DNA of 64,000 nucleotides from Vampirovibrio sp. (GTDB lineage Bacteria > Cyanobacteriota > Vampirovibrionia > Vampirovibrionales > Vampirovibrionaceae). Location: contig DAIDMR010000069.1 in NCBI GenBank assembly GCA_027448865.1, positions 23,931-87,930 of the forward strand, given 5' to 3'. The notes beneath the pieces were generated by a model, which saw nothing but the letters and a program-made list of their open reading frames with translations, was not told the DNA's origin and made no database searches. The position numbers were made by a program, and so were the translations under genes. Shown here in pieces: positions 148 through 48,287 of this stretch (position 1 is the first letter of the stretch; each line of letters starts with the position of its first letter).

Positions 148-3100
148 ATGTTTCAGAATATACTCAAAAGACCGGTTTTAGGTCTGGTCATCTCAATATT
201 TATCGTATTTTTGGGCTGTCTTTCCATTCAACAACTGCCTATCTCACAGTTTCCACAAATTGCGCCCACAGTCGTCAACGTCTTTATTGCCTACCCGGGC
301 GCCAGTGCAGATGTCCTGACAAAATCCACGTTAATTCCACTGGAGGCGGCCATTAACGGCGTGCCAGGCATGCGCTACATGGCCTCCGACGCGACCAGTG
401 CTGGCGAGGCAACGTTGAGACTGGTTTTTGAACCCGGAACCGATCCAAACCAGGCCGTGGTCAATGTTAAAACACGGGTGGATAGGGTCATGACCTCCCT
501 GCCCGAGTTGGTGCAACGAGAGGGGGTCATCCTATTACCGCTCCAGCCCTCCATGTTGATGTACATCGATTTATATTCTGAATCCAAAAATATCGATCAA
601 AAATACCTTTTTAATTACGCCTACACCAAGCTGATTCCCGAGATTCAACGGATAAACGGGGTGGCCAACGCCAGTTTGCTGGGCACCAGAACCTACTCCA
701 TGAGAATATGGTTAAAGCCGGACAGAATGAGGGCGTACAGCATCTCTCCCGAAGAAGTGGTGAAGGCGGTTAGCGAACAAAGTATTATTGCCCGTCCCGG
801 CAGGTTGGGTCAGAGTTCCGGGAAAAAAGCCCAGTCAACTGAATACGTTCTTGACTATGAGGGTCGATACAATGAGCCCACACAATACGAGAACATCATT
901 ATCAAAAGCTCCGAGTTCGGAGAAATGGTCAAGCTCAGGGATGTCGCCGAGGTTGAACTGGGAAGCGAGTTTTATGACATCTATAACACGCTCGATGGCA
1001 AGCCGTCCGCCTCGCTCATACTAAAGCAAACGCCCAACAGCAATGGGGCAGCCGTCATCAAAAATATTAAGGAAAAGATAAAAGAGCTTGAAAAAGATTT
1101 TCCAGACGGCATCAAAGTCAAGTACAGTTATGATGTTTCCAAATTTCTGGACGCTTCGATTGAGCAGGTAGTGGATACCATCCGAGACGCGTTTATTTTG
1201 GTAACCCTGGTGGTATTTTTATTCCTGGGGGATTGGCGCTCAACCATCATTCCCATTATCGCGGTACCAATTTCACTGATTGGTGCCTTTTTTGTGCTGC
1301 TCTTATTCGGAATGTCCATCAACCTGATTACCCTGTTTGCGGTGGTTCTGGCCATTGGGATTGTGGTGGACGATGCCATAGTTGTGGTAGAAGCCGTCCA
1401 CAGTAAAATGGAGGAAGACCCCACACTTTCTCCCTACGCAGCCACCCAAAAAGCCATGAAGGAATTGGGGGGAGCCATTATTGCCATCACCCTGGTTATG
1501 ATTTCCGTATTCTGTCCGATTGCGTTTATGAGTGGCCCTGTGGGTGTATTTTACAGGCAATTTTCCATTACCATGGCCAGTTCCATTATTATTTCGGGCT
1601 TAGTGGCACTCACTCTGACGCCTGTACTGTGCGCGATGGTTCTCAGAAACCATGGCAGCCACGGCAATCACGCTAGCCACGGCGAAAAAGCCAGCCACAA
1701 AAAATCAAGGAATTTATTGAAACGCGGGATCGATCAATTCAATGTGCTTTTCGATCAATTGACGCAACGATACATGTGGCTCCTGGATAAAATTGTCACA
1801 AAGCGAGTCATAACCTTCGGTGTCATCGTATTATTTGCCATCGGGATTTTTATTTTTAACAAAATCGTCTCCTCAGGTTTTGTACCCAGCGAAGATCAAG
1901 GCACCATCTACGCAATCGTGCAAACGCCTCCGGGATCGACCCTGGAATACACCAATCAGGTCGTGAACCAGTTACAAAAAATTTCCGAAAAAGTAGAGGG
2001 GGTAGAGTCCGTCACCTCAATGGTGGGCTATGAGATTATGACGGAAGGCAGGGGCTCTAATGCGGGCACATGCCTTATCAATCTGAAAAACTGGGAAGAG
2101 AGAAAAGAAAGTGTGCATGACATCATTGAGGCGCTGGAGAAAAAGTCCGAAGCCCTGGGTGCCAAGGTGGAATTTTTTGAACCGCCTGCCATTCCCGGAT
2201 TCGGCACCTCTGGCGGGTTTTCCTTGCGTCTTCTCGACAAATCGGGTGAAACCAATTACCAAGAACTTGAAAAAGTGACCCAGGACTTCATGCGCAATCT
2301 GGAAAAGCGAAAAGAAATTCGAGGTCTGTTTACTTTTTACAACGCCACATACCCTCAATATAAAATCAAAATAGATAACCAATTGGCCATGCAAAAGGGC
2401 GTATCCATTAATAACGCCATGGAAAATTTGAATATTCTAATCAGCGGTTCCTATGAGCAGGGCTTTATCCGGTTTGGTCGCTTTTTCAAAGTGTTTACCC
2501 AGGCGGCTCCGGAGTACAGAAGGAATCTTGATGATCTGAACAATTATTTTGTTAAAAACGATCACGGCGAGATGGTTCCATACAGTTCATTTATGACCAC
2601 TGAAAAAACACAGGGAGCGAATGAGATTACTCGCTATAACCTGTATAACTCTGCCGTCATTCGGGGCTTTCCAGGTAATAACTACACCTCGGGCGATGCC
2701 ATTGACGCCATAAAAGACGTGGCTCTGAAAACCCTTCCCAGAGGCTACGATATTGCCTGGGAGGATCTCTCATACGATCAGGCCAAACGGGGAAATGAGT
2801 TTGCCGTTATCTCCCTGATAGTGGTGCTATTTGTTTATTTGGTATTAGCGGCTCAGTACGAGAGCTTTGTCTTACCCCTGGCAGTGCTATTGTCCTTGCC
2901 CATCGGGATTTTTGGGTCTTACTTCATGCTCAAGCTCATGGGGTTGGCAAACGATGTCTACGCACAGATCGCAATCATCACGCTCATCGGGCTTTTGGGT
3001 AAAAACGCGGTGTTGATTGTCGAGTTTGCGGTGCAAAAGCGCAATGAAGGCTTGTCCATACTGGAGGCTGCGCTTGAAGGGGCAAAAATGCGTTTCAGAC

Positions 3101-3441
3101 CGATTCTGATGACCTCCTTCGCCTTTATAGCCGGACTCCTGCCGCTGGTGTTATCGCACGGCGCGGGCGCGGTGGGAAACAGAACGCTTGGCTCTTCTGC
3201 CATGGGCGGTATGATTTCCGGGACCCTGATTGGCATCGTCATCATCCCCGGATTGTATTTTGCGTTTGCAACCCTGGTCGACGGAAAAAAGCTGTTGCAG
3301 GATGAAACTCAGACAACGTTGACAGAAGCAATCGTTGGCAAAAAGACCAGAAACAAGAAACAGTTCAAAATGCTCAAGCTCATGTTCAGGTTACTCATTC
3401 GTAAACTGAGAACCTCCAGACAAATCAACAAACCGGATTGA
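148..3441 (+). CDS. RND multidrug efflux permease (HAE1 family, AcrB/MexB-like), 1097 aa
   Basis: The length, the 12-TM layout with two large periplasmic loops, and the conserved TM4 segment AIGIVVDDAIVVVE with TM10/11 motifs are typical of AcrB-type pumps. There is an unusual His-rich cytoplasmic insert (HGSHGNHASHGEKASH). Confidence 0.9.
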   Translation: MFQNILKRPVLGLVISIFIVFLGCLSIQQLPISQFPQIAPTVVNVFIAYPGASADVLTKSTLIPLEAAINGVPGMRYMASDATSAGEATLRLVFEPGTDPNQAVVNVKTRVDRVMTSLPELVQREGVILLPLQPSMLMYIDLYSESKNIDQKYLFNYAYTKLIPEIQRINGVANASLLGTRTYSMRIWLKPDRMRAYSISPEEVVKAVSEQSIIARPGRLGQSSGKKAQSTEYVLDYEGRYNEPTQYENIIIKSSEFGEMVKLRDVAEVELGSEFYDIYNTLDGKPSASLILKQTPNSNGAAVIKNIKEKIKELEKDFPDGIKVKYSYDVSKFLDASIEQVVDTIRDAFILVTLVVFLFLGDWRSTIIPIIAVPISLIGAFFVLLLFGMSINLITLFAVVLAIGIVVDDAIVVVEAVHSKMEEDPTLSPYAATQKAMKELGGAIIAITLVMISVFCPIAFMSGPVGVFYRQFSITMASSIIISGLVALTLTPVLCAMVLRNHGSHGNHASHGEKASHKKSRNLLKRGIDQFNVLFDQLTQRYMWLLDKIVTKRVITFGVIVLFAIGIFIFNKIVSSGFVPSEDQGTIYAIVQTPPGSTLEYTNQVVNQLQKISEKVEGVESVTSMVGYEIMTEGRGSNAGTCLINLKNWEERKESVHDIIEALEKKSEALGAKVEFFEPPAIPGFGTSGGFSLRLLDKSGETNYQELEKVTQDFMRNLEKRKEIRGLFTFYNATYPQYKIKIDNQLAMQKGVSINNAMENLNILISGSYEQGFIRFGRFFKVFTQAAPEYRRNLDDLNNYFVKNDHGEMVPYSSFMTTEKTQGANEITRYNLYNSAVIRGFPGNNYTSGDAIDAIKDVALKTLPRGYDIAWEDLSYDQAKRGNEFAVISLIVVLFVYLVLAAQYESFVLPLAVLLSLPIGIFGSYFMLKLMGLANDVYAQIAIITLIGLLGKNAVLIVEFAVQKRNEGLSILEAALEGAKMRFRPILMTSFAFIAGLLPLVLSHGAGAVGNRTLGSSAMGGMISGTLIGIVIIPGLYFAFATLVDGKKLLQDETQTTLTEAIVGKKTRNKKQFKMLKLMFRLLIRKLRTSRQINKPD

Positions 3442-3481
3442 ACATCGAAAACACGGAACCATAGAAAATCAGGAAAACCCT

Positions 3482-4969
3482 ATGAAGTTCATAAAAATAA
3501 TTAGCCTTTTATCGGCACTAACGCTCTTTGTATTGAACACGCAAGAGCCTGTGCTTGCACGGTCCTGGTTTCACCCCCTCAATCTGGTACAAAAAGAGCC
3601 CAAGTTTAATGTTCCTGACAAGTATAGCTATGGCCAGTCCAACGAATACAAGAGCCCAGATGGCTTTGAGAGTGAAGGGCTGGAGAATGCGGCTCATGTC
3701 AGCTGGCGGGAATTTTTCTCAGATCCCTTCCTCATCCGTCTGATCGAAACAGCCCTGTCAAACAATCAGGAATTCAATATCTTTTTGCAAGATATTGAGA
3801 TTGCCAGAAATGAGGTCAAGGAGAAGCAAGCCGAGTACTTGCCCAAAGTAGGCATGGGGATGGGGATTGAAAACTATGCGGTGTCAAAAAATACACGGGA
3901 TGGGGTGTTAGACAAGATTATAGACAGAAACGACTTAACTTCCCGCAATCTGGCTTTGAATATAGGCCCGAACATGACTTGGGAACTGGATATATGGAAA
4001 AAATTAAGAAACGCAAAAGACGCGGCCAGAATGCGTCTCATGGCCCAATACGAGGGCCGGAATTATCTTATCTCACGATTGGTCGCTGAAATCGCCCGCT
4101 GTTATTATGAATTGATGGCTCTGGATAATTCCCTGAAAATATTGGATGAAAATATTCAAATTCAGGAAAAAGCCTTTCTTAAAATGAAGTTGCTGAAAGA
4201 ATATGCCAAAGCCAATAACCTGGCGGTGAATCGGTTTGAAGCACAGTTGTTGAAAACTAAAAGCCAGCGGTTTGAAATAAGCCAAAAAATCGTGGAAAAA
4301 GAAAATCGTCTGAAGTTTTTGTCGGGCATGTACGATAGCGCCCCCATCCCCAGAAACTCCGAAAAACTAATGGCCATGCAGGTTGATGAATTACAGGTCG
4401 GTGTTCCCACTCAACTTTTAGAAAACAGGCCTGATATTCGTCAGGCGGAATTTGCCATCAAGGCGGCAAAACTGGATCTAAAAAGTGTCCAGGCCAGTTT
4501 ATACCCCAGCCTGAGTATTAACGCGACAACTGGTTTTTCAGCGTTTGGCTCCGCTTTGCTGTTCAATCCCAAATCCCTGGTTTACAATTTAATGGGGGAT
4601 TTGACGGCGCCTCTCATCAACAGGAAAGCCATCATCGCCAGAATCGCGATTGCAGACTCTTATCAGACGCAAGTGGTATTAAACTACGAGCAAACCCTTT
4701 TGCAGGCCTACACAGAAGTGCTGAATCAAATGTTAAACATCCGAAACATACAACAAAGTTTTGAGACCAAACAAAGAGAAGTGCGCTTATTGGATACTTC
4801 TGTAGACATTGCCAATAATTTATTTCAATACGCCAAGGCCGATTATGTGGAAGTGCTGCTGACACAAGAAGAAAAACTCAATGCTGAAAAGGAATTGGTG
4901 GAGTTGAAAATGAATTTAATCGGCTCCAAAGTCGATCTGTATCGAGCATTGGGAGGGGGCTGGCGATAA
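3482..4969 (+). CDS. RND efflux outer membrane factor (NodT/OprM/TolC family), 495 aa
   Basis: It lies 41 bp downstream of the RND permease and has an N-terminal signal peptide. The size and the two-repeat helical/beta organisation are typical of OMF proteins (ends ...DLYRALGGGW). Confidence 0.8.
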   Translation: MKFIKIISLLSALTLFVLNTQEPVLARSWFHPLNLVQKEPKFNVPDKYSYGQSNEYKSPDGFESEGLENAAHVSWREFFSDPFLIRLIETALSNNQEFNIFLQDIEIARNEVKEKQAEYLPKVGMGMGIENYAVSKNTRDGVLDKIIDRNDLTSRNLALNIGPNMTWELDIWKKLRNAKDAARMRLMAQYEGRNYLISRLVAEIARCYYELMALDNSLKILDENIQIQEKAFLKMKLLKEYAKANNLAVNRFEAQLLKTKSQRFEISQKIVEKENRLKFLSGMYDSAPIPRNSEKLMAMQVDELQVGVPTQLLENRPDIRQAEFAIKAAKLDLKSVQASLYPSLSINATTGFSAFGSALLFNPKSLVYNLMGDLTAPLINRKAIIARIAIADSYQTQVVLNYEQTLLQAYTEVLNQMLNIRNIQQSFETKQREVRLLDTSVDIANNLFQYAKADYVEVLLTQEEKLNAEKELVELKMNLIGSKVDLYRALGGGWR

Positions 4970-4991: not shown

Positions 4992-6665
4992 CTAACTTCT
5001 TGGGGTAATCAATTCGACCGGGGCCACTTCATAAATTCTTTTACTCACATTGTCGGCCAAAAACAAGCGATGAAGCACCGGATCATAGGTCAGCCCAAAC
5101 TGGCCGGCGGTTCCGGTAGCCGTACTGCCCAAATCGGTGAGGTTAATGGAGAGATACGGGGTCATGGCCAAGCTATAGCTGCCAGTGCGAGGAATCCGGT
5201 ACAGATCCAGGTAATTATTACCACCGGATGCATACACCTGATTGCGCACAATTAGAAAATCACCGGTGGTCGGCTCAATTTCAAAGCCGCCTATTTGCGA
5301 AGCGGTAGCGATGGCGCTGGGTAATTGCCACTTGTTACCAGTTTCGGTCTGGGGCGCGGTGGAGTCCGGGCCGTTCAACTCCACGATTTTGAAAAACCCG
5401 TCATTATCCACCCGTGTAATGTAAAGTCGTCGGTTGTTGGGATTAAAAGCCATAAAAAGCCTGCTGGACTGGGCCGTTACAAAGGTGGCGGCAGCGCCGC
5501 CCGCCACTTCGGTCAGGGGACTGATACTGTTCAGGTTATAGCGATGATAGCGTTCGCTGGTGGTATTACTAATGGCGTGAAGTGTGTTGCCGTCATCTTC
5601 AATGGCCACCCCTCTGGCGGGATATTTTCCGTCATTTAGGGCGTAAGGCTGATTGATAAATACCCCGTTGCGCTCGGTGGTGTAAAGAATGGAATGCGAG
5701 TCACTGCCGATGATCAACCGATCATGGGCGGAATCCCAGGCCAAATCCACAGTGTTAAAGCCAGCGGGCCACATGTTATTGACCGTGCTGTCAAACGAAA
5801 AAGACTGCACCAACTGGGTGTCTTTCACCCCCGGGGCCACCGCCGCCAGATTACTGCGCACCGGGCCCGGGGCCACGGCAATAAAAATATACTGGGGCAG
5901 GGTACGCATCGTTTCGGGTCTACCGGTGCCGGTGGTGAAGTTAAAGTTATTCAATACAACCTTACTGGAATAGGTGGGATTTAAGGAATTGGCGGTTACC
6001 CCGAACCATGAATTTGCAGCGGTACCACAATTCACCTGAGTCTGGGTGGTGTCACCGCTACCCAGCACCCCGTTGGCGTTGTTATCCAAGTAATCAATAC
6101 AATTGTTGGCAGAATGGGCAAACAAAAACCGGGGCCCGCTGGCATTGACCAACCGGTACTTGTTAAAGCCGGAAATGCGGTAAGGGGAGCCCCAGGTGGC
6201 CCCGCCATCGTCGGAACGTTTGAGATAGGGAAACGTCCCTCCGGACTGCTGTAAGGGACAGGTGGTATCGGTACTGGCCGCTTGCACGCTGCTGTAATAA
6301 CAGATGCCGTACACTTTTTTAACCGCATCGCCGGTGCTGGGATCATAGGTGGTGTATTCCAACCGGTTCCGGAAGGAATTGGGACTGATGTAGGCCCCTC
6401 GGTGCAAATCCTCCCGGATGTCATCGATCAGGCTGTGTACTTCGCTGGCCAGCTTGAACCGGTCGTTAAGGGAGACGGAACGAAGATTGGCCCCAAAGAG
6501 CAAGTTCCCCATGGAGAGCAATACAAAGCCCATCAGGGCCATGGCAATCAGCATTTCCACCAGGGTTAAGCCCGGCTGTCTTTTTTGAACCGTCAAACGC
6601 TGAAAGCAGGCCATGGGGTTAAGTCCTTTTCTTAATGGAAAGCGCCTGAATGTAGGGATCGTCAT
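4992..6665 (-). CDS. Type IV pilin-like protein with a prepilin N-terminal methylation motif and a large C-terminal domain (PilV/PilW-class minor pilin or tip-associated protein), 557 aa
   Basis: The N-terminus ...KRQPGLTLVEMLIAMALMGFVLL matches the class III signal peptide/GFxxxE-type motif (cleavage after G, invariant E5). It is the last gene of a minus-strand cluster with two other pilin-like genes. Confidence 0.55.
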   Translation of the reverse strand: MTIPTFRRFPLRKGLNPMACFQRLTVQKRQPGLTLVEMLIAMALMGFVLLSMGNLLFGANLRSVSLNDRFKLASEVHSLIDDIREDLHRGAYISPNSFRNRLEYTTYDPSTGDAVKKVYGICYYSSVQAASTDTTCPLQQSGGTFPYLKRSDDGGATWGSPYRISGFNKYRLVNASGPRFLFAHSANNCIDYLDNNANGVLGSGDTTQTQVNCGTAANSWFGVTANSLNPTYSSKVVLNNFNFTTGTGRPETMRTLPQYIFIAVAPGPVRSNLAAVAPGVKDTQLVQSFSFDSTVNNMWPAGFNTVDLAWDSAHDRLIIGSDSHSILYTTERNGVFINQPYALNDGKYPARGVAIEDDGNTLHAISNTTSERYHRYNLNSISPLTEVAGGAAATFVTAQSSRLFMAFNPNNRRLYITRVDNDGFFKIVELNGPDSTAPQTETGNKWQLPSAIATASQIGGFEIEPTTGDFLIVRNQVYASGGNNYLDLYRIPRTGSYSLAMTPYLSINLTDLGSTATGTAGQFGLTYDPVLHRLFLADNVSKRIYEVAPVELITPRS

Positions 6666-7566
6666 TGGTCGTGTTACTGTTGGGAGCTATCGTGATGTCC
6701 AGATTGCCATCGGTGACCACCACGTCAAACATTTGCACATTGGCGCAAAAAGTTTGGTTGCCACAATATTGGGGGGCAAAATATGGATTACCCGGATTCA
6801 TTAACTTCCCTTCCAGGAAGATGTCCATAAGCCGAAGTACCGCCGCGTTGTTTTCAACAAAATAGAGCTTGACCGTATATAAACCTGTGGATACGGGAGC
6901 AGTATAGGTGATGGAGCCCGTGCTGTTTACCCACCAGCCACCCCGATAAATATCGGCATCCCGGTGAGAGGGCAGGTTAGTGATGGGCTGGGTTGGATAA
7001 TTGGTATACAAGCTGCTGGCGTTATTAATGCCGGGTACCATGGCAGCCCCATTGTAGAGAACCCATGGATTCCACCACTGCCCGGAGGAGTCCATGTAGC
7101 CTGCCTGCGGGGTGTCAAAGCGAACCCGCAGAGTGTTGCGGGTCTGAATGACCTTGGTGCTGTAGCGGGGGGCGTTAGCCGCATCGGCAGCGGTGTTGTA
7201 CAGGTAGTAAAACACCGTTTTCTGGAAGCTGTCCGAGGCCCCGGCATTGGTGGTATCCACCACGGAGCGCCAGGGAATGACCTGCCCGGATTCGGTGGTG
7301 TCGGTATTCATGGCGGCAAGGTTGTATACGGGGACAAAATTATTCCGATCCACGTTCATTTCATCCTGCAGGCTATTCAGCAAAATGCTGCGGGTAGACT
7401 GCAAGTACACGTCGCGGGCGTTTTGGCCGGTTCGGGTCAGCATGAGGGCACAAGGCAGAATGGTGGCCGACAGCATGGTGATCATCAACAGCACTTCCAG
7501 CAGGGAAAGACCCTTGGCGGCCCTTTGGGATGGCCTGGCCTGCTTCAGTGGTGTCTCGATGTCCAT
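6619..7566 (-). CDS. Type IV pilus minor pilin-like protein (prepilin-type N-terminus), 315 aa
   Basis: The N-terminal region AAKGLSLLEVLLMITMLSATIL is a prepilin-like hydrophobic helix with a conserved Glu. Its 3' end overlaps the next pilin-like gene by 47 bp. Confidence 0.5.
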   Translation of the reverse strand: MDIETPLKQARPSQRAAKGLSLLEVLLMITMLSATILPCALMLTRTGQNARDVYLQSTRSILLNSLQDEMNVDRNNFVPVYNLAAMNTDTTESGQVIPWRSVVDTTNAGASDSFQKTVFYYLYNTAADAANAPRYSTKVIQTRNTLRVRFDTPQAGYMDSSGQWWNPWVLYNGAAMVPGINNASSLYTNYPTQPITNLPSHRDADIYRGGWWVNSTGSITYTAPVSTGLYTVKLYFVENNAAVLRLMDIFLEGKLMNPGNPYFAPQYCGNQTFCANVQMFDVVVTDGNLDITIAPNSNTTNDDPYIQALSIKKRT

Positions 7567-7644: not shown

Positions 7645-10600
7645 TCAGGGGGTGCCGTAGTAACTGCGCTGATCCTGTTCCAGCATAGCCAGTTGAGTCC
7701 CGCTCATGGCGTTGGGATACAGAATGACCTCGCTGACCCCCCCGGCCCAGAGGTCACCGAGGAAGAGAAAGGGCGCCACCCCCAGCCAGAGCCGGTTGAT
7801 GCCGAAGGCACCGCTGCTGGCCACAGAGGTGCCATAGACTCCATTGACGCGAATTTCATGGAAACTGCCGTTAAAAACGGACGTGGCCTGAAAGGGCTGG
7901 TTCAGGGTAAAGGCCGGGGATATGCCCAGCGTGGCGTTATTCCGGTAACTAAACAACTGGTTGGTACTGCCGTAACGGCGCAGAAAGGAAGCCGATTCCG
8001 GCGTGGCGTAATCATAGACGTCCGAACTTTTGTTGCCACCAAACAGCCTGCCAGCAGTACCCGTAGAACCGTCCATGCTGGCCACCACCAGCGCTCTGGC
8101 ATTGGTGCCGGTAAAGTTGAGGGTGCCGGCAGTGTTCATGCAGTTGTTTAAACCGTTAAACTGAATGGCGGGGCGACCCGTTTTTCTATCCAGCCGAATC
8201 ACCGGCTGTAATTCCCGAACGCCTTGCCTGAAATTGAAGCCATTGCCGCTTTGGTCGTACCATGTGGTCACAAAACCGGTGTCCGGAACCTTGTCGTTGA
8301 TGTTGTAATAGGCCATTTGATTGCCTTCCAGACGATTTCGTGTGGCGGTGGTAACGCTGGTGTTATAAATAATCAGTTCTGACATGGCCGCACTGGCACC
8401 GGGATAAAAACCAATCTCGTTATGCCCCAGAACAGCCACTCCCTGTGGGGTAATATCCGTATCGGTGTCCGGTGTGGAAGCATCCACAAGGCCATTGACA
8501 AACAAGCTATAGTCGATCCCCCGGTTTCGTTGAAAGGAAACCAGTTGACCCGTACCATCACTGGGAATGGTATAAGAACCTGTCCGCACAGTTTGATTGG
8601 TTCCATCATTCCGGCGTGTCACAAGCGCAAATTTCCCGGAAGACTTTATTAAACCCACAATTGGATTGCTATTGCCAGCGGGATTACGATCCAGGAAGTT
8701 CGCAGTATCAACACTGCCATAGTCGGCCAGTATAGTGGAATACCACCACCCACCGGTTCCCGCCATGAGATTTGTACCCGACCCCAGCAAAATCCGACTG
8801 CCTATGTTACGCATGGCAGGTCGCCCATTAATGGTATCCAAAACCCCGGCATTCGTAATGCGAGGCTGATTGGCTGCGGTGGGCTGGGTCAGGTGCCGGT
8901 TATTCCCGCTTTGGTCATACCAGATGGAGACAAAACAACTGCTGATGCCGCAAAACTTGAACAAGTTTGCGAGATCCAGATTTCCTTTGGAATCAAAACC
9001 AATAATCTGGGTGCTGTTATCACTGCTGCGACGCACCTGAATAGCTTTATCATCATCAGTTGTCCCGGTATTGTCCGTAATTAATCTGCGTAAGCCGTAA
9101 GCGGCGGTGGCACTGGGTACGGTTACCAGCGGCGGGGTATAGCCCGGGTCCTCCAGAGTGAGCTGGTAATAGCGAGCATCGTCGTTCTCCAGAATTTGCC
9201 GTTCGGCGGTGGTTAAATCAGTCGGGTATTGAATCCATTCCCCCACAGCCCCTTTAAAATAGCCGTAGGGCGCATGGACAGTCGGCGGGCCGCCGATGAA
9301 TACGGGGGTAAATAAATCCCCTCGTAACGATGTAAATCCCACGTCGACCAGTTTACTATTGACAAAGAGAAAAGGCTGCTTGTTGATGTAGTTGTACGAT
9401 ACTATAAGACCATCGTTGTTATTGGGGCTGATGCTGGCGTTGGCAAGGCATGGCATGTAAGAGTTCCCATGCTCATAGACACCCACCCCATTTTCCCCCA
9501 GCGAGATCCCCGAACCGGCGTTGACTGCTCCCCCTTGGGGGGGACTGAGCAGATACTTTTGACCACCAGTCCCCGACGAACCGCTGGTTGCTTTGGACTG
9601 CAAGGTAATGCTTGCCCCGGCGTCCACCTGAGCGACCACAAGATTGAAGGAACTGTTGGCTAAATTGTTGGTGGCTCCAGCAATGGCGTCATCCACACCA
9701 TCAAATCGAAGGGCCACCCGGCCATTGATCATCTCCAGGGCCCCGGCATTCACAATACGGGGTTGCGCGGTCAGTGTGGACTGGGTGGCATTTCGGCCAT
9801 TGCCGCTCTGGTCATACCAGGTGGTTACAAAACAACTATCCGTCTTGCAAAAGCTGAGCAAGGAGGGCGTGTCCAAATCCCCATTGGGCAAAAAGCCGAT
9901 GTTGGTGGTCGTGTCATCGCTACTGCGCCTGACGATAATGGCGTTGCCCGTGTAGGCGGTGTTGATTTTCCTTAAACTATAAGCCCGAAATGCGCCAGTC
10001 ACCCGATCCAGCGGTTTGGGGTAGGTGGTCAGGTTATCATTCAGGAAAGTCATCAAGGCGGGCATGTCCAAATCGCCATTGGGTAAAAACCCGATATCTG
10101 TTTCGGCGTTGTCACTGCCGCGCCGCACCCGAATGGCCCGGGTAATGGCGGCGTCGCTGGTCAGTCGGCGCATGCCATAAGCGGCGGTGGCCCCTGCAAT
10201 GTTGTTGAATGCCATTGGGTAAATGTCGCGCGTCAGGGTCAATAACTGGCTGACGCTGGACTGGCTGCTCCCCACCGTGGCCGTTACCACAACCAGCACG
10301 GTGTTACCATTCACATAACTGACCCGGCTGGTGTAAGAGCCAACCGAGCGGGTAGCCCCAGCCAGACTGTCGGGGCTCTGGGGCATGAGGACATAGGCCG
10401 GATCATTAGTGGAGTTGAAAGAAGCGCCCGCGGCAATGGTTTGCCCGGTATTGTATGAGGTCTGAAGCCGAGCGGTCACCGCCCTCATCCCGCTTTTGGC
10501 CAGTTCCTCTGCCGCCAGGCGGTTCTGGCTGGCGCTGCCCATAACAATGGCTGACAAAGGGCCGCTCATTAATTGCAAAGAGGCGCCAATGGCCATGGTG

Positions 10601-10725
10601 GTTCCTAAAAACGCCAACAACATGGCCAGCCCGTATCCCTTTTTCTTCCCGGGAGAACGACCGGCGGCCTTGAGCCACTGCGCGAACTGAAATCCTGCTT
10701 TACCAGCTTTACCTGTTTTAAACAT
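7645..10725 (-). CDS. PilX_N-domain protein fused to tandem LamG/concanavalin-like lectin repeats (putative type IV pilus tip adhesin), 1026 aa
   Basis: The N-terminus KKKGYGLAMLLAFLGTTMAIGASL resembles the PilX N-terminal domain. About three copies follow of a ~90-aa module (AYGxRRL...VRRSSD...IGFLPNGDLD...) each ending in the WYDQSGNG(R/N) motif characteristic of LamG_3-like jelly-roll domains. There is also one more solo WYDQSGNG module. Confidence 0.55.
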   Translation of the reverse strand: MFKTGKAGKAGFQFAQWLKAAGRSPGKKKGYGLAMLLAFLGTTMAIGASLQLMSGPLSAIVMGSASQNRLAAEELAKSGMRAVTARLQTSYNTGQTIAAGASFNSTNDPAYVLMPQSPDSLAGATRSVGSYTSRVSYVNGNTVLVVVTATVGSSQSSVSQLLTLTRDIYPMAFNNIAGATAAYGMRRLTSDAAITRAIRVRRGSDNAETDIGFLPNGDLDMPALMTFLNDNLTTYPKPLDRVTGAFRAYSLRKINTAYTGNAIIVRRSSDDTTTNIGFLPNGDLDTPSLLSFCKTDSCFVTTWYDQSGNGRNATQSTLTAQPRIVNAGALEMINGRVALRFDGVDDAIAGATNNLANSSFNLVVAQVDAGASITLQSKATSGSSGTGGQKYLLSPPQGGAVNAGSGISLGENGVGVYEHGNSYMPCLANASISPNNNDGLIVSYNYINKQPFLFVNSKLVDVGFTSLRGDLFTPVFIGGPPTVHAPYGYFKGAVGEWIQYPTDLTTAERQILENDDARYYQLTLEDPGYTPPLVTVPSATAAYGLRRLITDNTGTTDDDKAIQVRRSSDNSTQIIGFDSKGNLDLANLFKFCGISSCFVSIWYDQSGNNRHLTQPTAANQPRITNAGVLDTINGRPAMRNIGSRILLGSGTNLMAGTGGWWYSTILADYGSVDTANFLDRNPAGNSNPIVGLIKSSGKFALVTRRNDGTNQTVRTGSYTIPSDGTGQLVSFQRNRGIDYSLFVNGLVDASTPDTDTDITPQGVAVLGHNEIGFYPGASAAMSELIIYNTSVTTATRNRLEGNQMAYYNINDKVPDTGFVTTWYDQSGNGFNFRQGVRELQPVIRLDRKTGRPAIQFNGLNNCMNTAGTLNFTGTNARALVVASMDGSTGTAGRLFGGNKSSDVYDYATPESASFLRRYGSTNQLFSYRNNATLGISPAFTLNQPFQATSVFNGSFHEIRVNGVYGTSVASSGAFGINRLWLGVAPFLFLGDLWAGGVSEVILYPNAMSGTQLAMLEQDQRSYYGTP

Positions 10726-15980: not shown

Positions 15981-17438
15981 ATGTCACGCCTTACCCCGTT
16001 ACATCGCTTTTGCCTGATTGTTTCCTGTTTCATTTTTGTGTGGCCGTTACCCGTTTATGCCCAGCAAGCCCCGAAGACGCCAGGAAAACCCTGGGATATT
16101 GAGGCCTCGATTCTGTACCAGTCTCAAGAGACTCACAAAAATGAGTGGGCAGACGCGTTATCAACCGATAAGCGCTATACGCTGCCTGAATTGATTAGTT
16201 TGGCAGAAGAACGCAACCCCAAAACACGGCTAGCCTGGGAAAAAGCCAAACAGTTGGCCGCAAAGCTGGGGATTGCCCAAAGTGAGTTGTTTCCAACCCT
16301 GGCGGCTGTGGCCATACTGGAAAATAACAGCTCGGCCCTATTTTTTGAGACCTTCTATACCCAGAACCTGTTTTTATTCAGGCCAGCCATTTCCTTAAGC
16401 TATACGGTTCTAGACTTTGGGGAACGGCGTGGCAAAATTGACGAACAAAAGGCCAGCCTGCTGGCGGCCAATCTGAATTTTAATGATGTCCATCGTCAAG
16501 TGATTTACAGCATGGTGAGCGCCTACTATAAGGTTATGTTGGCTATGAGTCGAAAGGAAGCCGCTGAGGTAACCCTGGCAAACGCCAGAACCGTGCAGGA
16601 TTCTGTGGAAGAACGACTGGAGCAGGGCTTGGCCACCCTACCCGATAAGCTGGACGCACAGGCGGCCTCCGCCAAAGCCGAGTATGAACTGGTCGCCATC
16701 CAGGGCGAGGAGGATATTGCCCGGGGTGAACTGGCCTCTCTATTGCGAGAATCTCCCCAGAAAAAGCTGTCCCTGGAAAGCTTAAACCAAACCACAGGCT
16801 TTAACTTTCTAACGCCAGACGCAACAGCGACCATCGAGGAAGCATTACGGTTCCGTCCGGATTTCCTGGCCAAAATTCAACGTATCAGCGCGGCCCAAGC
16901 AGACATAAAGAGCAAGCGCGCAGCATACTTTCCCAAGCTGACTATTTCGGCCAATTACGGTCGGTTGGCCGCGTATGCCAACCAGGAGCATAGTCCCTAC
17001 GCCTTTGGGCAGATTCCCGTTTATCAATGGCAGGCAAATTTTAACTGGGTTTTATTTGATGGCGGGCGTCGTCGTAATGAATTACGTCTGGCCAAAGCCC
17101 GATACGAAGCAGCGCTCTCAGAGCAGCAAGAAGCCAAAGATCAGATTGAGTTTCAGGTGTGGCAGGCCTACGTCAATCTGGAAACGGCAAAAAAGCAGTT
17201 GGCAGCCTCTGAAAGATTGCTATTGGCCTCTCAAAAATCCTATGAGGCGGCCACGGAGTCCTATCAGTACGGGCTGCGTAATGTCATTGATGTGACCAAC
17301 GCCCAAAAAAACCTGGCCATTGCCCGAAATACCTTTGTGGAAGCGCGTATCAACATACTGGTGGCGATGGCCGAGCTGGCTTTTCAAACCGGCGATCTGG
17401 TTCATATTGGGAATCCTCCGCTTGTTAATCCGCCATGA
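15981..17438 (+). CDS. Outer membrane efflux protein (TolC/OMF family), 485 aa
   Basis: It has a signal peptide and OMF-type repeat architecture, and is the first gene of a four-gene efflux operon. Its stop overlaps the next ORF by 4 bp. Confidence 0.8.
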   Translation: MSRLTPLHRFCLIVSCFIFVWPLPVYAQQAPKTPGKPWDIEASILYQSQETHKNEWADALSTDKRYTLPELISLAEERNPKTRLAWEKAKQLAAKLGIAQSELFPTLAAVAILENNSSALFFETFYTQNLFLFRPAISLSYTVLDFGERRGKIDEQKASLLAANLNFNDVHRQVIYSMVSAYYKVMLAMSRKEAAEVTLANARTVQDSVEERLEQGLATLPDKLDAQAASAKAEYELVAIQGEEDIARGELASLLRESPQKKLSLESLNQTTGFNFLTPDATATIEEALRFRPDFLAKIQRISAAQADIKSKRAAYFPKLTISANYGRLAAYANQEHSPYAFGQIPVYQWQANFNWVLFDGGRRRNELRLAKARYEAALSEQQEAKDQIEFQVWQAYVNLETAKKQLAASERLLLASQKSYEAATESYQYGLRNVIDVTNAQKNLAIARNTFVEARINILVAMAELAFQTGDLVHIGNPPLVNPP

Positions 17439-17776
17439 TGTCCCTGGTACCAATAGAATCACCCTACCCTTTCATACTACTTGGAGTACCGTTCATGAAG
17501 TCATTGTTTGAACCGAGGTCTCTGTCCGCAGTTTTGCTGTTGGTCGGCATTTGTCTTGCGATGTCGGGGTGTCAAAGAAGTCCTTCTATTGATATTTTCG
17601 GTTCTTTTTTCCCGGTATGGTTTTTTTGCATGCTGGGCGGACTGCTGATCACATTTGTGATTCGGTATTTCCTCAGACGTCTGCGGCTGGATCAGGAGAT
17701 GGGCCCCCTGGTCATTATTTACCCCTGTATGACCGCGTTGTTCTCTTTTATCCTTTGGCTGGTTTTTTTCCCTTGA
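17435..17776 (+). CDS. DUF1656/AaeX-like small membrane protein (true start probably internal, about 17495 or later)
   Basis: The C-terminal part IDIFGSFFPVWFFCMLGGLLITFVIRYFLRRLRL resembles AaeX (FPVIVVFG...LVRRVL), and it sits immediately upstream of the HlyD-like adaptor as in aaeXAB. A possible lipobox LAMSGC exists. The annotated start is the longest ORF, not necessarily the real one. Confidence 0.5.
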   Translation: MMSLVPIESPYPFILLGVPFMKSLFEPRSLSAVLLLVGICLAMSGCQRSPSIDIFGSFFPVWFFCMLGGLLITFVIRYFLRRLRLDQEMGPLVIIYPCMTALFSFILWLVFFP

Positions 17777-17797
17777 TTTGAAGAATATAGGTGCGTC

Positions 17798-18997
17798 ATG
17801 GTTTTCAGTTTCAATAAAAAAAGAGTCGGTCGGCTTTTAGGTGGCCTGATCATTGGTTCAACGCTGCTTACCGGCGCTGCGGTGTATTGGCGAATCATCA
17901 CCCACCCCCGTACGGATGACGCAGAGGTGTTCGCCAACCTGATCGGCATTGCCCCGGAAGTCAGCGGCCCCATTACCCATATTTACGTGAAAGACAATCA
18001 ATGGGTCAAAAAAGGCACCCTGCTTTTTGAAATCGATCGCGCGCCGTTCCTGTATGCCTGGCAAGCCGCCAAATCTCAACGTGATACGCTGGAAGGCGAA
18101 ATTCGGGACTTAAAGCGGAAAATCATTTCACAGCAAAACTCGGTTCGATCCGCGGATGCTCAAATCAGGGTCTCAGAGGCATCACTGGAAAACAGTGGGG
18201 CTGGCATCAGCGCCGCCATTGCCGGGGTTGAAAACGCCAGGGCGGGTTTGGTTCGCGCCGAAGCCGATTATGTGTATGTCACCGCTAACCTGAAACGGCT
18301 GGAGGCCTTGCTCAAAAAGCAATTTGTCACTGTGGATCAGGTTCAATTGGCTCAGACCGATGTTCGAAATAAAGCAGAAGCGGTTTTACAGGCCCGATCG
18401 CAACTGGCATTTCAACAGGCTCAACTGAGTGCCGCCCGGGCCAGACAGCGAGAAACCAATGCTCAATTAATCCAGAGTCAAGCCCGTCTGGATGAATCCG
18501 TTTACAAAATTGACATTTTGGATCCGCTGGTGGCGCAGAGGCAAAAGAAAATCGCCGAAATTGATACAGCAGCCTATAATTTGTCCCGTTGTCGTATTTA
18601 TGCCCCTTTTGACGCCAGAGTCACCAATTTGATGGTGTCGGAGGGAGAGTATGCGCATGCCGGGCAAAAGGTATTCACACTGATCGACACCCGGAAATGG
18701 TGGGTCATCGCCAATTTCAGAGAATCTCAAGTCAATTACACCCGTCCTGGCACCAAAGCCGATGTGTACCTGATGTCTGAGCCAAGCGTGCGCTATGAAG
18801 GCGTTGTGGAGAGTGTTGGCTATGGTGTACTGCCAGATAGTAATCTGATTGGTAACCTGGATGGCGACTTGCCTGATGTTCGTCGGACGCTCAACTGGGT
18901 TCGTTTGGCCAGTCGCTTTCCGGTCAGGGTTCGCGTTCTGAATCCGGAAAGTGAGCATTTTCGAATTGGGGCTTCCGCCATGGTGGTTATACAGTGA
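17798..18997 (+). CDS. HlyD-family membrane fusion/periplasmic adaptor protein (AaeA-like), 399 aa
   Basis: It has a single N-terminal TM, a long coiled-coil (QQAQLSAARARQRETNAQLIQSQARL), and a C-terminal beta-barrel region typical of HlyD/EmrA/AaeA. Confidence 0.85.
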   Translation: MVFSFNKKRVGRLLGGLIIGSTLLTGAAVYWRIITHPRTDDAEVFANLIGIAPEVSGPITHIYVKDNQWVKKGTLLFEIDRAPFLYAWQAAKSQRDTLEGEIRDLKRKIISQQNSVRSADAQIRVSEASLENSGAGISAAIAGVENARAGLVRAEADYVYVTANLKRLEALLKKQFVTVDQVQLAQTDVRNKAEAVLQARSQLAFQQAQLSAARARQRETNAQLIQSQARLDESVYKIDILDPLVAQRQKKIAEIDTAAYNLSRCRIYAPFDARVTNLMVSEGEYAHAGQKVFTLIDTRKWWVIANFRESQVNYTRPGTKADVYLMSEPSVRYEGVVESVGYGVLPDSNLIGNLDGDLPDVRRTLNWVRLASRFPVRVRVLNPESEHFRIGASAMVVIQ

Positions 18998-19036
18998 GAA
19001 ACAATGAGTGCTAACAGCCTTAACTAATTACAGGAT

Positions 19037-21190
19037 TTGATCATGACCGTGACGAAGCCTTTACAAGTCTGTAATATTCCGGCCAATCAGCCCTGGCTGT
19101 TTGACTTTTTAAAAGATGAGCTGAAACCGTATCCCAACCGTTTTCACACCGTGGCTCGCATGGTGCTTTCCGCCACTCTGACCATGCTGGTGATCATGAC
19201 TTTGCGCAGTCCAAATGGGGCCATTGGCATTTTTTTCGGGTTATTAATTTCCAGAGAGAATCCTGCCAATACTCTGAAAAGCGGTTTGCAGACCATCCTG
19301 GCTTTTATTGCCGGGCTTGTGTATACCCTGCTGGGGGTGACTCTGTCTTTGAACGAACCGCTGCCTCACTTTGTTTTTATCGCGCTGAGTTTGGCGCTGA
19401 TGTTTTTTATCATCCGCACTGTTAAAAGTTTTAGCGCTGCTTTTGGCTTCTGCTTTATTGTGGTGACAACCCTCCCCGTTTGGGAGCCGCCTTTTTCGGT
19501 TAATGCCCAGGTGGATAGCACGCTTTGGTCGGTCTTTGGCGTTATATTGGCCGTGTGCGTCGCAATGACCGTTGAGCTTATCTTTTGCCCCCGGCAGAAT
19601 ACGACAGAGGAGATTCGGAAAGGGGTTAACTATCGCCTAGATGCCATGCAAGCCCTGTTTCAGGCTTATGTGAATGAACAGGTTACTACCGACAGTCCCA
19701 AATTGGAGCGGATTAAGCAGATGGCAAGACTGGGAGCCCGCCAGTTAAAATGGTTTTTGGCCCGTTCCAGCATCGAGGATTCTTTGGGCCTGCGTAAAGC
19801 CCGATGGGGAAGTTATATTTCCGCTGTAGAGCGCTTGGTGGATACGGCTTCAAACCTGGGTATCCCCAGAAAACCCTTAACGGAGGTGGATAAAAGTCGC
19901 CTGCTTGCTTTGCAGAATGCCTGTCGATCCCTGCGACTCGCCAATATCAGCGAAAACATACCCGTACAAAAGATCGGGTCTTTTTCGGAAAATCTTTCAC
20001 GGGCATTGCCGCTGTTGTCGGATCTAGAGCGCCAGTTTGAGCGTCTGCCCCAGTTGTTGAATGAGACCAGCCTTGATGAAAAAAAGACAGAGCCCACACA
20101 ATGGTCTTGGCGACAATTATTTCTAGCAGATGCCTTTGTGAGCGTGGAGTATCTGCATTTCGCGGTGAAGGGCACGCTGGCCGGATTGGCCTGTTATGTG
20201 TTCTATTCCGCTGTCGATTGGCCCGGACTCGGTAACAGCTTGGCGACCTGTGTGATTACAGCACTTTCTACCGTAGGCTCCTCACGACAAAAACAGATTT
20301 TGAGAATGGGTGGGGCCATTTTGGGCGGCTTAATTCTGGGGATCGGTTCCCAAATTTATATTTTGCCTCACCTGGATTCCATTTTAGGATTCACTCTGTT
20401 TTTTGGGATCATAACCGCCCTATCCGCCTGGGTGACCACGGCCAGTCCCCGATTGTCATACTTCGGACTGCAAATGGCCCTTGCCTTTTACCTTATTATG
20501 TTTCAAAGCACCGCAATTCCAACCGATCTCACCATAGGACGCGATCGGGTCATTGGGACCCTACTGGGTCTGGTTGCCATGTGGGGCATTTTCGATCAAT
20601 TGTGGGCCAAACCAGCCATTCAGGAAATGAAAGAGGCCTTTGCCGCCAACATGAAGCACTTGGGGACTTTGAGCCTGGCCATGCTGTCTGTTTCACCCTC
20701 GGTGGAAGCCATGGATATCCTGCGGGAACGTATTAATAACGGTTTTAACAAGATGGATGGAAACGCGGATATGATTCTTTTTGAGTTTGGCAGGGCTCGT
20801 GCTGAGCATTTATATTGGCGATCGCGACTTGAAAATTGGCAAAATACCCAGGAGTCCTTACTTTTGGCCCAATTGGCTGTTAACCACTATCGCTCTCACA
20901 TGCAAATCTCAGATTGGCCCGAGAGTCTGCAAGCCGCACTTTTACAGTTTAATCAGGCTTTGGCAAAAACCTGGTATGAAGTGGGCCTGCGAGTGACCAC
21001 GACCCCTGACTTAGCCCTCAACAACCATGTCCTGGAACCACTGCTTGTAAAACTGAGACAGGAAGTATTCCTTCATTTCGCCTCACGCCCTGATGAGATG
21101 GGCTTCCATAATGCCGAGGCCATACTGGATTTGGATGAGCAGATCGTGCTGATGACGGAAACCCTGATCAAGGAAGTCTCTGCCGCTTGA
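19037..21190 (+). CDS. FUSC (fusaric acid resistance / aromatic acid exporter) family protein, AaeB-like, 717 aa
   Basis: It is duplicated, with two hydrophobic modules each followed by a hydrophilic domain. It sits directly downstream of the HlyD-like gene, reproducing the aaeX-aaeA-aaeB order. Confidence 0.85.
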   Translation: MIMTVTKPLQVCNIPANQPWLFDFLKDELKPYPNRFHTVARMVLSATLTMLVIMTLRSPNGAIGIFFGLLISRENPANTLKSGLQTILAFIAGLVYTLLGVTLSLNEPLPHFVFIALSLALMFFIIRTVKSFSAAFGFCFIVVTTLPVWEPPFSVNAQVDSTLWSVFGVILAVCVAMTVELIFCPRQNTTEEIRKGVNYRLDAMQALFQAYVNEQVTTDSPKLERIKQMARLGARQLKWFLARSSIEDSLGLRKARWGSYISAVERLVDTASNLGIPRKPLTEVDKSRLLALQNACRSLRLANISENIPVQKIGSFSENLSRALPLLSDLERQFERLPQLLNETSLDEKKTEPTQWSWRQLFLADAFVSVEYLHFAVKGTLAGLACYVFYSAVDWPGLGNSLATCVITALSTVGSSRQKQILRMGGAILGGLILGIGSQIYILPHLDSILGFTLFFGIITALSAWVTTASPRLSYFGLQMALAFYLIMFQSTAIPTDLTIGRDRVIGTLLGLVAMWGIFDQLWAKPAIQEMKEAFAANMKHLGTLSLAMLSVSPSVEAMDILRERINNGFNKMDGNADMILFEFGRARAEHLYWRSRLENWQNTQESLLLAQLAVNHYRSHMQISDWPESLQAALLQFNQALAKTWYEVGLRVTTTPDLALNNHVLEPLLVKLRQEVFLHFASRPDEMGFHNAEAILDLDEQIVLMTETLIKEVSAA

Positions 21191-21332: not shown

Positions 21333-21896
21333 TTAACTGATAACCAATTCCCAGGGCTTGGCATTGTTGCTTTTAAAGCCATCGGCCTGATACCCGGCGG
21401 CGGTCAGTTCTGTTTCGTATTGTTCAGGGTGTGCGGCCGCATCAATCATGACCTCAGAGATAATTTGCAGCGCTTCTTCCCAGTTGGCTTTCATCTCATC
21501 AGTCCATTCACCTTCTTTGGACAAATGCTCATCCAATACAGCCACTAGATTCTCTGCCACAGCGCCATAATGGCCGTTTTCCGTTTTATAGGCGATATGC
21601 CGTATGCCCATGGCTCGCAGGTAAGGCAACATAACCTCAGGGTTGGTAACAGATGCCACAATGGCGCCCACGGAAGCCATCAACTTCTTGTGTTGCTCCT
21701 CAGGCGGAGCGGTAAAGAGGTGTCGCACACTGGGATATTTCTCAAATAAACGCTCGTAAAAACGTAATCCTAATGTTCGCAACCCACCATTTTCTTTTTT
21801 GGCGCGATCAAACGATTCTGCAATCAGGGCCACATTCAATGTCATAGGGCGATTCCTTTTCAATTTAGGGGATACGTTTACTCTAGTCCATCCCAC
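21333..21896 (-). CDS. Single-domain bacterial globin (Vitreoscilla-Hb / flavohemoglobin N-domain-like) with a C-terminal extension, 187 aa
   Basis: The globin A-B-C helix pattern ...FDRAKKENGGLRTLGLRFYERLFEKYPSVRHLF... matches the Vgb/Hmp N-domain pattern (FYxxLFxxxPxxxxLF). The proximal region MGIRHIAYKTENGHY has a candidate proximal His. Confidence 0.65.
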   Translation of the reverse strand: MGWTRVNVSPKLKRNRPMTLNVALIAESFDRAKKENGGLRTLGLRFYERLFEKYPSVRHLFTAPPEEQHKKLMASVGAIVASVTNPEVMLPYLRAMGIRHIAYKTENGHYGAVAENLVAVLDEHLSKEGEWTDEMKANWEEALQIISEVMIDAAAHPEQYETELTAAGYQADGFKSNNAKPWELVIS

Positions 21897-21913
21897 CCCT
21901 GAGCCTCATTGAC

Positions 21914-29086: not shown

Positions 29087-29425
29087 ATGCCAACTCCGCA
29101 TCGCCCTCCCTTGACCGTTCGCCGAGCACTCAAGCAGCTTGGGGAGGATATCCGCGATGCACGCCGTCGCAGCGGACTACCCGCTGAGGTGGTTGCTGAA
29201 CGGGCTTTTACTAGCCGTCCTACTCTGAGACGAATTGAGGCAGGAGATTACAGTGTAAGCATAGGTATCTATGCATCGGTTCTGCAAGCTTTGGGACTGC
29301 TGGAGGGGCTTGGCGAGTTGGCAAGTCCGTCCAAGGACAAGTTAGGAATGGCGCTGGCTTCTGAGAAATTGCCTCAGCGGGTGCGTATGCGCCGAACTCA
29401 ACGAAATAAGAACGATGAGCAATAA
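29087..29425 (+). CDS. hipB: HipB-like XRE-family HTH antitoxin, 112 aa
   Basis: It has the XRE HTH RRALKQLGEDIRDARRRSGLPAEVVAERAFTSRPTLRRIEAGD. It overlaps the hipA start by 11 bp. Confidence 0.8.
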   Translation: MPTPHRPPLTVRRALKQLGEDIRDARRRSGLPAEVVAERAFTSRPTLRRIEAGDYSVSIGIYASVLQALGLLEGLGELASPSKDKLGMALASEKLPQRVRMRRTQRNKNDEQ

Positions 29426-38600: not shown

Positions 38601-38678
38601 TCAACGATCTTGAACTTGTTTATCCTTCCGGTCATGTATAGCCTTTTCGGTCAGCCGGAAGCGTGTGAAGCTGCATGA
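35598..38678 (+). CDS. Heavy-metal efflux RND pump (HME family, CusA/CzcA-like), 1026 aa
   Basis: It has a 12-TM RND architecture. The TM4 segment [19 protein letters not shown] is HME-RND type and the length matches CusA/CzcA. An adjacent cusRS-like two-component system is present. Confidence 0.9.
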
Positions 38679-42833: not shown

Positions 42834-42859
42834 GAAGTAATGAGAGAGAAGGGGAAACT

Positions 42860-43497: not shown

Positions 43498-43532
43498 GAC
43501 GCCATAGAGGGCCAGAGGAAGAAGAGGGACGC

Positions 43533-48252: not shown

Positions 48253-48287
48253 ACACAAGAAACAGAAACGATGAAAGAAGAGATTGC

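Follow-up and report, generated by a model that had tools for sequence, protein, structure and literature searches.

What kind of protein is encoded at positions 7645-10725 of the 64,000-nucleotide stretch of Vampirovibrio sp. DNA analysed here (contig DAIDMR010000069.1; hereafter the window)? A preliminary description of this DNA had seen in it a PilX-type anchor fused to an array of laminin G (LamG)-like lectin modules. The open reading frame (ORF), on the minus strand, proved to be real and intact, encoding 1026 amino acids, and a lectin array joined to a minor pilin stands as the best reading of the protein. On balance we lean towards a modular minor pilin of the PilX/GspK type that forms a tip or priming complex with a PilV-like, malectin-bearing partner and a PilW-like partner and displays glycan-binding-type modules for prey recognition.

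The repeats were originally described as ~90-residue AYGxRRL/VRRxSD modules, about three in number and each ending in WYDQSGN, with a fourth, solitary WYDQSGN module. Motif counting did recover three such N-terminal modules (N-modules), each of ~60 amino acids, with AYGxRRL-type starts at residues 182, 248 and 542 and VRRxSD at residues 200, 265 and 564. WYDQSGN, however, is present in three copies rather than four (Trp at 303, 602 and 822); just the second and third N-modules run into it, and no N-module precedes the copy at residue 822. In pairwise segment BLAST, residues 243-540 aligned with residues 536-800 at 34% identity over 278 amino acids (E=4e-30) and with residues 795-1026 at 29% identity over 242 amino acids (E=1e-14). 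The true repeat unit is a whole domain of 215-290 amino acids, not a ~90-residue module, and its copies resemble one another far more than chance would allow. In the nucleotide sequence, the internal repeats measure only 47-119 nt, with 68-83% identity, and Tandem Repeats Finder detected no array in the gene except a 9-nt unit present three times in the leader-coding region. Provided that the N-terminal moiety is a pilin, its succession by independent C-terminal globular modules (Table 1) is the layout of a modular type IV pilin.

Structure prediction, one of the checks proposed beforehand, returned beta-sandwich domains. An AlphaFold2 (AF2) model of the full-length protein, built on 31 homologues, had a predicted local distance difference test (pLDDT) score of 66.8; the N-modules and domain 3 were well modelled, domain 3 being the best sandwich (pLDDT 75-91). 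A Foldseek search against the PDB ranked the glycoside hydrolase family 54 (GH54) structure 1WD3 first (E=1e-9), followed by laminin LG, neurexin LNS and trans-sialidase lectin domains, pentraxins, botulinum Hc and a cyanophage tailspike. Foldseek probability reached 1.0 for laminin LG, the pentraxins, the trans-sialidase lectin domain and AbnA domain 4, and 0.95-0.98 for neurexin LNS. Among the predicted viral structures of BFVD, the matches were tandem concanavalin A (ConA)/LamG structural proteins of tailed phages, many of them cyanophages, and were far stronger than those in the PDB, with E values down to 1e-28; PHROG 10356 ('virion structural protein') spanned the whole of domain 1 (residues 244-529, E=2e-53). 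Based on these models, the repeated domains are predicted to be ConA/LamG jelly-roll beta-sandwiches. The Foldseek, viral-structure and PHROG matches make the idea of a jelly-roll lectin array right at the level of fold, although not at that of the named family: Laminin_G_3 (PF13385) stayed below threshold, its best match being domain 2 with 17.7 bits against a required 27.6 (E=0.004). Many homologues carry precomputed PF13385 matches. The nearest functional analogues of the repeated domains are surface-recognition proteins, not enzymes.

We assign the N-terminus with moderate confidence to a remote PilX/GspK-type pilin moiety, on the basis of its predicted fold, a remote profile link and its gene context. 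The N-domain of ~140 amino acids is conserved in 44 homologues. When modelled alone (pLDDT 73.7), it gave a ~60-residue helix followed by four strands, and its top PDB fold match was the Thermus tip-pilin ComZ (6QVI; probability 0.87, E=0.13). An N-domain profile search retrieved 74 proteins among 1.84 billion representatives; in the distant matches the anchor is joined to FG-GAP repeats or to repetitive Gly/Ser/Thr/Asn-rich tails. One small, distant protein, P0174, matched the N-domain family profile at E=3e-4 over the whole library and itself scores 25.4 bits against PilX_N, for which the cut-off is 25.5. In hhalign comparisons, the N-domain was aligned with the PilX-like protein P0173 at 95% probability (E=4e-8) and with P0174 at 86%.

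The leader preceding this domain reads ...SPGKKKG-YG-LAMLLAFLGTTMAIGASLQLM, that is, a short, basic, Gly-ended stretch followed by about 20 hydrophobic residues. The NCBI record of a V. chlorellavorus homologue, P0002, is annotated from Met35 and drops the conserved basic leader and GYG (corresponding to window 10623-10725). We favour the start at 10725 over the internal Met35 because in about 44 homologues the hydrophobic helix is still preceded by the basic leader and an invariant GYG; G13-Y14-G15, in the numbering of our alignment A1, is invariant in all 24 homologues aligned. Such a leader may be a target of prepilin peptidase. Within its coding region, the 9-nt unit CCTGCTTTA (plus strand) occurs three times at window 10694-10720 and encodes ...GKAGKAG...; the repeat is in frame and could therefore vary leader length, and P0003 has an identical copy number. 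Promoter and terminator scans around the operon gave nothing better than shuffled sequence.

Two prepilin genes lie directly downstream (Table 1), and they are the only ORFs in the window with canonical prepilin motifs, both fitting G↓(F/L)(S/T)L(L/V)E. The PilV-like protein has a malectin domain (PF11721; E=2.3e-6, 28.1 bits vs 23) covering profile positions 43-162 of 163, along with a weak, sub-cut-off match to TIGR02523 PilV (E=1.8e-4). The PilW-like protein, whose start at 6614 is taken from the gene call in the L007 locus, matches Pfam N_methyl (E=2e-6) and NCBIfam prepilin-type families. Its C-terminal ~450 amino acids have no family match in Pfam or NCBIfam. They contain about five '...D/N..h.RL(F/Y)(I/L)...' repeats that resemble beta-propeller blades and, if they are such blades, would echo the propeller of PilY1. 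Sequence searches of the PilV-like and PilW-like proteins against the PDB gave no useful match.

Orthologues of both prepilins adjoin the large gene in eight further distinct loci (L001/L014, L002/L011, L004, L005, L007, L008, L009 and L022). A V-like prepilin is adjacent in the window and in nine other loci, eight of which also have the W-like gene. The set occurs in three gene orders (X-V-W, V-W-X and divergent), and because the V and W partners stay linked across all three, the linkage appears to be functional rather than mere synteny. Two PilA-like pilin genes are found nearby in L004. Among the pilus genes of V. chlorellavorus, 'pilV' and an adjacent 'prepilin-type' gene have been listed, and the supplementary tables of that study have no entry for arabinofuranosidase, GH54 or pilX (Soo et al. 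2015). On a Melainabacteria-type contig (L006 4666-9244), two shorter anchored paralogues of 699 and 747 amino acids, each with two domains, stand in tandem without V/W neighbours, which hints that a V/W pair encoded at another locus may serve additional PilX-like subunits too.

Among the species-representative genomes scanned, only those of Vampirovibrio and other Melainabacteria gave anchored homologues. Vampirovibrio chlorellavorus supplies the closest database proteins, including one of 90% identity that bears the name 'arabinofuranosidase catalytic domain-containing protein'. Two paralogous copies are present in strain NCIMB 11383, and at least four anchored ones in a single Melainabacteria metagenome-assembled genome. 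Anchor-less arrays of the repeated domain occur in Bacteroidota (many with a type IX secretion system (T9SS) sorting domain), candidate phyla radiation bacteria, Planctomycetes and Proteobacteria.

Comparison with the closest strain revealed a replaced segment inside the gene. The L007 strain and the window run collinear for 14.5 kb with 95-97% nucleotide identity, the sole exception being window 8344-8835, where blastn found no detectable similarity. Sliding identity per 30 nt against L007 was 70-100% before this cassette, 23-53% inside it and 93% after it; protein identity was 98-100% up to residue 560 and 8-30% within the cassette. The cassette coincides exactly with the domain 2 body and lies between a conserved 'QPRITNAGVLD' and the terminal helix 'RxRxEGNQMAYYNIN'; both edge segments recur within the gene (DNA repeat families D1 and D5). 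Judged from these alignments, whole cassettes seem to be exchanged at the conserved module borders. Among the closest relatives, P0002 and P0004 share the type F domain-2 body of the window protein, and P0003 and P0005 carry type A. Across the family, body types form a mosaic and proteins have 2, 3 or 4 domains. The preliminary description had suggested that the internal repeats drive length variation by recombination. We rejected copy-number change of this kind for close relatives: the repeats are short and imperfect and the four closest proteins all have three domains, two- to four-domain versions being seen in distant relatives. The idea of repeat-mediated recombination survives in altered form, as replacement of one domain body by an unrelated cassette, because the cassette edges coincide with segments repeated in the gene.

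Table 1. The modular PilX-like gene, its parts and the adjoining prepilin genes, in window coordinates.
Feature	Positions	Strand	Description	Basis
Modular PilX-like protein gene	7645..10725	(-)	1026 amino acids; ORF intact	ORF list and translation
Basic leader peptide	10636..10725	(-)	Residues 1-30; ends ...GKKKG, then Y-G; putative class III (prepilin-type) signal without Glu5	Sequence
Pilin-like moiety	10216..10638	(-)	Residues 30-170; predicted long helix (residues 31-92), then four beta-strands	AF2 models
Orphan GH54-like N-module	10000..10200	(-)	Residues 176-242 (AYGMRRL...VRRGSD...IGFLPNGDLD); without WYDQSGN or sandwich body	53% identity to residues 244-293, E=4e-15
Domain 1	9142..9999	(-)	Residues 243-528; GH54-like N-module, WYDQSGNG (303-310), predicted beta-sandwich body ending GEWIQY, helix	PF09206, residues 248-318; PHROG 10356, residues 244-529
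Domain 2	8290..9120	(-)	Residues 536-812; N-module, WYDQSGNN (602-609), predicted beta-sandwich body, weak Laminin_G_3 match	Motifs, BLAST, PF13385 E=0.004 (sub-cut-off)
Variable cassette	8341..8835	(-)	~490 bp; domain 2 body, residues ~631-795; unrelated sequence in the L007 strain	blastn, sliding identity
Domain 3	7648..8289	(-)	Residues 813-1026; WYDQSGNG (822-829), no N-module, predicted LamG-like sandwich ending SEVILY, C-terminal helix	Motifs, BLAST
PilV-like prepilin	6619..7566	(-)	Signal KG↓LSLLEV; C-terminal malectin (carbohydrate-binding) domain	Pfam Malectin; weak TIGR02523
PilW-like prepilin	4992..6614 (start alternatively 6665)	(-)	~540 amino acids; signal PG↓LTLVEM; large C-terminal region	N_methyl, NCBIfam prepilin

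These features can be combined into a mechanism. The PilV-like and PilW-like prepilins would join the PilX-like protein in a priming complex that ends at the tip of a type IV filament, and this tip complex would show several carbohydrate-binding-type modules outward. The sandwich domains would work as lectins or receptor-binding modules rather than as GH54 enzymes, with specificity diversified through exchange of whole domain bodies between alleles. Because Vampirovibrio is an epibiotic predator of Chlorella, the likeliest ligand would be a prey cell-wall glycan, and the complex may mediate prey recognition and attachment. Type IV pili have been proposed as one aid to Vampirovibrio attachment (Soo et al. 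2015; PMC4451040), and glycan binding at the tip is known for modular pilins that bear a ConA-like lectin module (PMC9934059, PMC8179133). A bolder version, in which the three core minor pilins make up a multi-lectin 'head' comparable to a phage receptor-binding complex that reads algal wall glycans, with prey range reset by cassette swaps and paralogous sets, is a rather unlikely extension.

The GH54 similarity raises the question of whether the repeated domains are enzymes. WYDQSGNG, which had been taken as a LamG signature, belongs instead to a block from the N-terminal part of the GH54 catalytic domain (PF09206; E=6.7e-21, 75.1 bits vs a gathering score of 25, residues 248-318). This match covers only profile positions 15-87 of 315. 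In a phmmer search of the PDB, residues 251-316 aligned with residues 21-87 of Aspergillus kawachii AbfB (AkAbfB, 1WD3), and the shared block AY..R.L / VRRSSD / IGF / FC...C / WYDQSGNG is 38% identical to that segment in the hhalign alignment. Alignments of a profile of 58 full family domains with the AkAbfB catalytic domain (hhalign, 96% probability) and of each single domain by BLAST were likewise confined to AkAbfB residues ~20-89. We verified the AkAbfB sequence against its PDB copy, in which catalytic D219 and E221 lie at 'VDMEN' and D297 at 'GGDNS'; no counterpart of D219, E221 (nucleophile) or D297 (acid/base) was detected by phmmer, BLAST or hhalign. Bodies of type A, the most numerous (49 sequences, domain 3 of the window protein among them), have only three conserved acidic positions: the Asp of WYDQ, an Asp/Glu at body position 84 and the Glu of a terminal 'SE-x-x-x-Y' strand that is typical of LamG-like domains. 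A conserved carboxylate pair is absent from these 49 bodies, and the family-wide alignment contains no further invariant carboxylates in the domain bodies. Nor was the arabinose-binding domain that the preliminary description had proposed to look for (ABFB, carbohydrate-binding module family 42 (CBM42)) found C-terminally by Pfam at E<=1. Because the alignments end at residue ~89 and the type-A bodies have no conserved carboxylate pair, the window protein appears to share with GH54 the N-terminal sub-structure and the sandwich fold, not the catalytic apparatus.

A true GH54 alpha-L-arabinofuranosidase, present as three membrane-anchored copies that digest algal wall arabinans, would account for the score above the PF09206 gathering threshold, for the name of the 90%-identical NCBI protein and for 1WD3 being the best PDB fold match. 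We nevertheless consider it very improbable and rejected it as the main explanation, given the restriction of the match to the N-terminal block, the unalignable D219/E221/D297 region, the type-A bodies without a carboxylate pair, the missing CBM42/ABFB domain and the hypervariable, exchangeable nature of the bodies. Many surface proteins of Bacteroidota, and phage proteins too, match PF09206 just as incompletely. The misleading name 'arabinofuranosidase catalytic domain-containing protein' goes back to a match of this partial kind.

Several observations weigh against a minor pilin that displays lectins. Pfam PilX_N (PF14341), by which the preliminary description had recognised the anchor, has no match at E<=10 in the window protein or in 24 family N-termini, so that part of the claim fell while the PilX/GspK-type assignment itself is favoured by fold, profile link and gene context. 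Pfam and NCBIfam searches with the whole protein, its N-terminal 175 amino acids and each domain body gave no pilin family, and the 24 N-termini gave only stray sub-threshold matches (ComP_DUS in two, Pilin in one). The N-domain profile found nothing among PDB sequences, and the ComZ fold match is not significant. Mature position +5 is Met or Leu, not Glu, whichever Gly counts as -1; the lack of Glu5 is a recognised exception for GspK/PilX-type subunits. Genes for pilus machinery and for a fourth, FimT/GspH-like minor pilin are missing from the window, and 7 of the 16 homologue loci lack both partners or have the V-like gene only. Confidence in the full-length AF2 model is moderate overall and drops under 50 in the domain 1 and domain 2 bodies, and domain 1, whose body type has only six close relatives, may be enzymatic.

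The missing pilin hidden Markov model match would also fit a cell-surface or secreted adhesin unrelated to any pilus, its N-terminal hydrophobic stretch being a mere Sec signal-anchor for the lectin array. Anchor-less arrays on T9SS-sorted Bacteroidota proteins and phage proteins, and the homologue loci without prepilin neighbours, point the same way. We regard this as unlikely: the conserved N-domain of ~140 residues exceeds a membrane helix and is predicted to form helix and sheet, it has a profile link to PilX-like proteins, and in nine loci, although gene order has been rearranged, the gene keeps its linkage with two canonical prepilins. Alternatively, the three proteins might prime a filament or pseudopilus for polysaccharide secretion or motility (cf. 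PilX_EPS/HpsA-PilV_EPS), with the modules handling the cell's own exopolysaccharide. Vampirovibrionia are sisters of Cyanobacteria, in which the giant PilX HpsA pairs with PilV (bioRxiv 10.64898/2026.02.12.705559); the W-like protein has a weak match to HpsC (E=0.03), and a glycosyltransferase adjoins the homologue in L001. That HpsC match, however, scores 13.9 bits against a cut-off of 200, NCBIfam HpsA, HpsB and HpsD have no match, the protein has no beta-solenoid, and strain-level cassette replacement together with phage receptor-binding-type similarity better fits a variable foreign surface, which leaves this alternative decidedly unlikely. A pilus-borne lectin array therefore remains the reading we prefer.

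Other genes in the window may bear on the same lifestyle. Some 31 kb away from the pilin set, a conjugative-type type IV secretion system (T4SS) cluster fills window 41817-61156, and one more ORF follows at 61117-63081. The cluster encodes a VirB11-like ATPase, VirB4/TrbE, TrbL/VirB6, VirB8, CagX/VirB9 and TrbI/VirB10, as well as an ArdC-metallopeptidase-Toprim protein and a VirD4/TraG coupling protein, and may be the predation apparatus T4SS proposed by Soo et al. 2015. Three efflux-type systems lie at window 148-4969 (resistance-nodulation-division (RND) permease and outer membrane efflux protein (OEP)), 15981-21190 (OEP, HlyD-like and FUSC proteins) and 32855-38678 (OEP, membrane fusion protein and RND). 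In several homologous loci (L001, L002, L006, L007) an OEP/RND or OEP/ABC export operon directly adjoins the large gene, which may be plain synteny or a functional link. A large ankyrin-repeat protein of 603 amino acids is encoded at window 24318-26129 (-), and others are near pilin sets at L002 3339-5246 and L003 1-791; ankyrin repeats are typical of effectors aimed at eukaryotic cells. The window also carries an AbiEii/AbiEi type IV toxin-antitoxin pair (39836-41574, -), a HipA-like kinase (29415-30662, +) and an ABC-3C-type CTD6 protein followed by an AAA ATPase (54984-58451, +). A globin-domain protein beside a CRP/FNR-type cyclic-nucleotide-binding regulator (21333-22615, -) may have to do with the globin-coupled aerotaxis sensor that Soo et al. 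2015 mention.

The three-gene minor-pilin set is a concrete candidate for a Chlorella recognition device, at least two of its subunits having carbohydrate-binding-type modules, and the strain-variable cassette could track prey specificity. This is of relevance to the biology of the non-photosynthetic sister group of Cyanobacteria and to algal mass culture; Vampirovibrio has been reported to crash algal mass-culture ponds.

Among known systems, the tip adhesins PilY1/PilC of diderm type IVa pili share with the window protein a proposed role, in which core minor pilins carry a large adhesive effector at the pilus tip. PilY1, however, is a non-pilin with a C-terminal beta-propeller and often a von Willebrand factor type A domain, whereas in the window set the adhesive modules are covalently part of the minor pilins; no similarity of the window protein to PilY1 was found. 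The cyanobacterial PilX proteins and Thermus thermophilus ComZ are bulky core minor pilins of the PilX type, to which the part of PilY1 as tip 'plug' or effector is thought to fall. Cyanobacterial PilX has a bulky apical domain and co-occurs with PilV, and its beta-solenoid is the proposed replacement for PilY1 (bioRxiv 10.64898/2026.02.12.705559); in PilX_Com and PilX_EPS/HpsA the solenoid interrupts the pilin fold between its penultimate and final strands (Schuergers et al. 2026). A PilV-family partner also co-occurs with the window-type gene, and the Vampirovibrio lineage is the sister group of Cyanobacteria. Unlike these proteins, the model of the window protein has no solenoid, its jelly rolls are appended after the pilin moiety, and it has no NCBIfam Hps matches.

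For the repeated domain itself, the closest relatives over the whole length, which share the tandem arrangement, are PHROG 10356/BFVD proteins of cyanophages and other tailed phages and T9SS surface proteins of Bacteroidota; these have no pilin-like anchor and are held through phage tail or virion parts or a T9SS sorting domain. GH54 AkAbfB shares homology at its residues 21-87 and the beta-sandwich fold, but in the window protein the domain is repeated, fused to a pilin-like anchor and without CBM42, and D219/E221/D297 are not detectably conserved.

A parallel in design is PilC of Streptococcus sanguinis. It likewise carries C-terminal modules on a pilin moiety, including one of ConA-like lectin/glucanase fold with demonstrated lectin activity at the pilus tip; glycan binding and a place in a tip complex beside a GspI-like partner have been proposed or shown (PMC9934059, PMC8179133). 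No sequence similarity between the two proteins was detected, and they differ in construction: the class III signal of PilC is canonical, its added modules are one of Ig-like and one of lectin type, and it comes from a monoderm, whereas the window protein combines a PilX/GspK-like anchor without Glu5, an orphan N-module and three GH54-related sandwiches in a diderm predator, and both of its partner pilins also have large C-terminal domains. On the reading favoured here, a lectin array on a minor pilin, the idea of the 'modular pilin' would extend to a subunit of the PilX/GspK type in a diderm bacterium.

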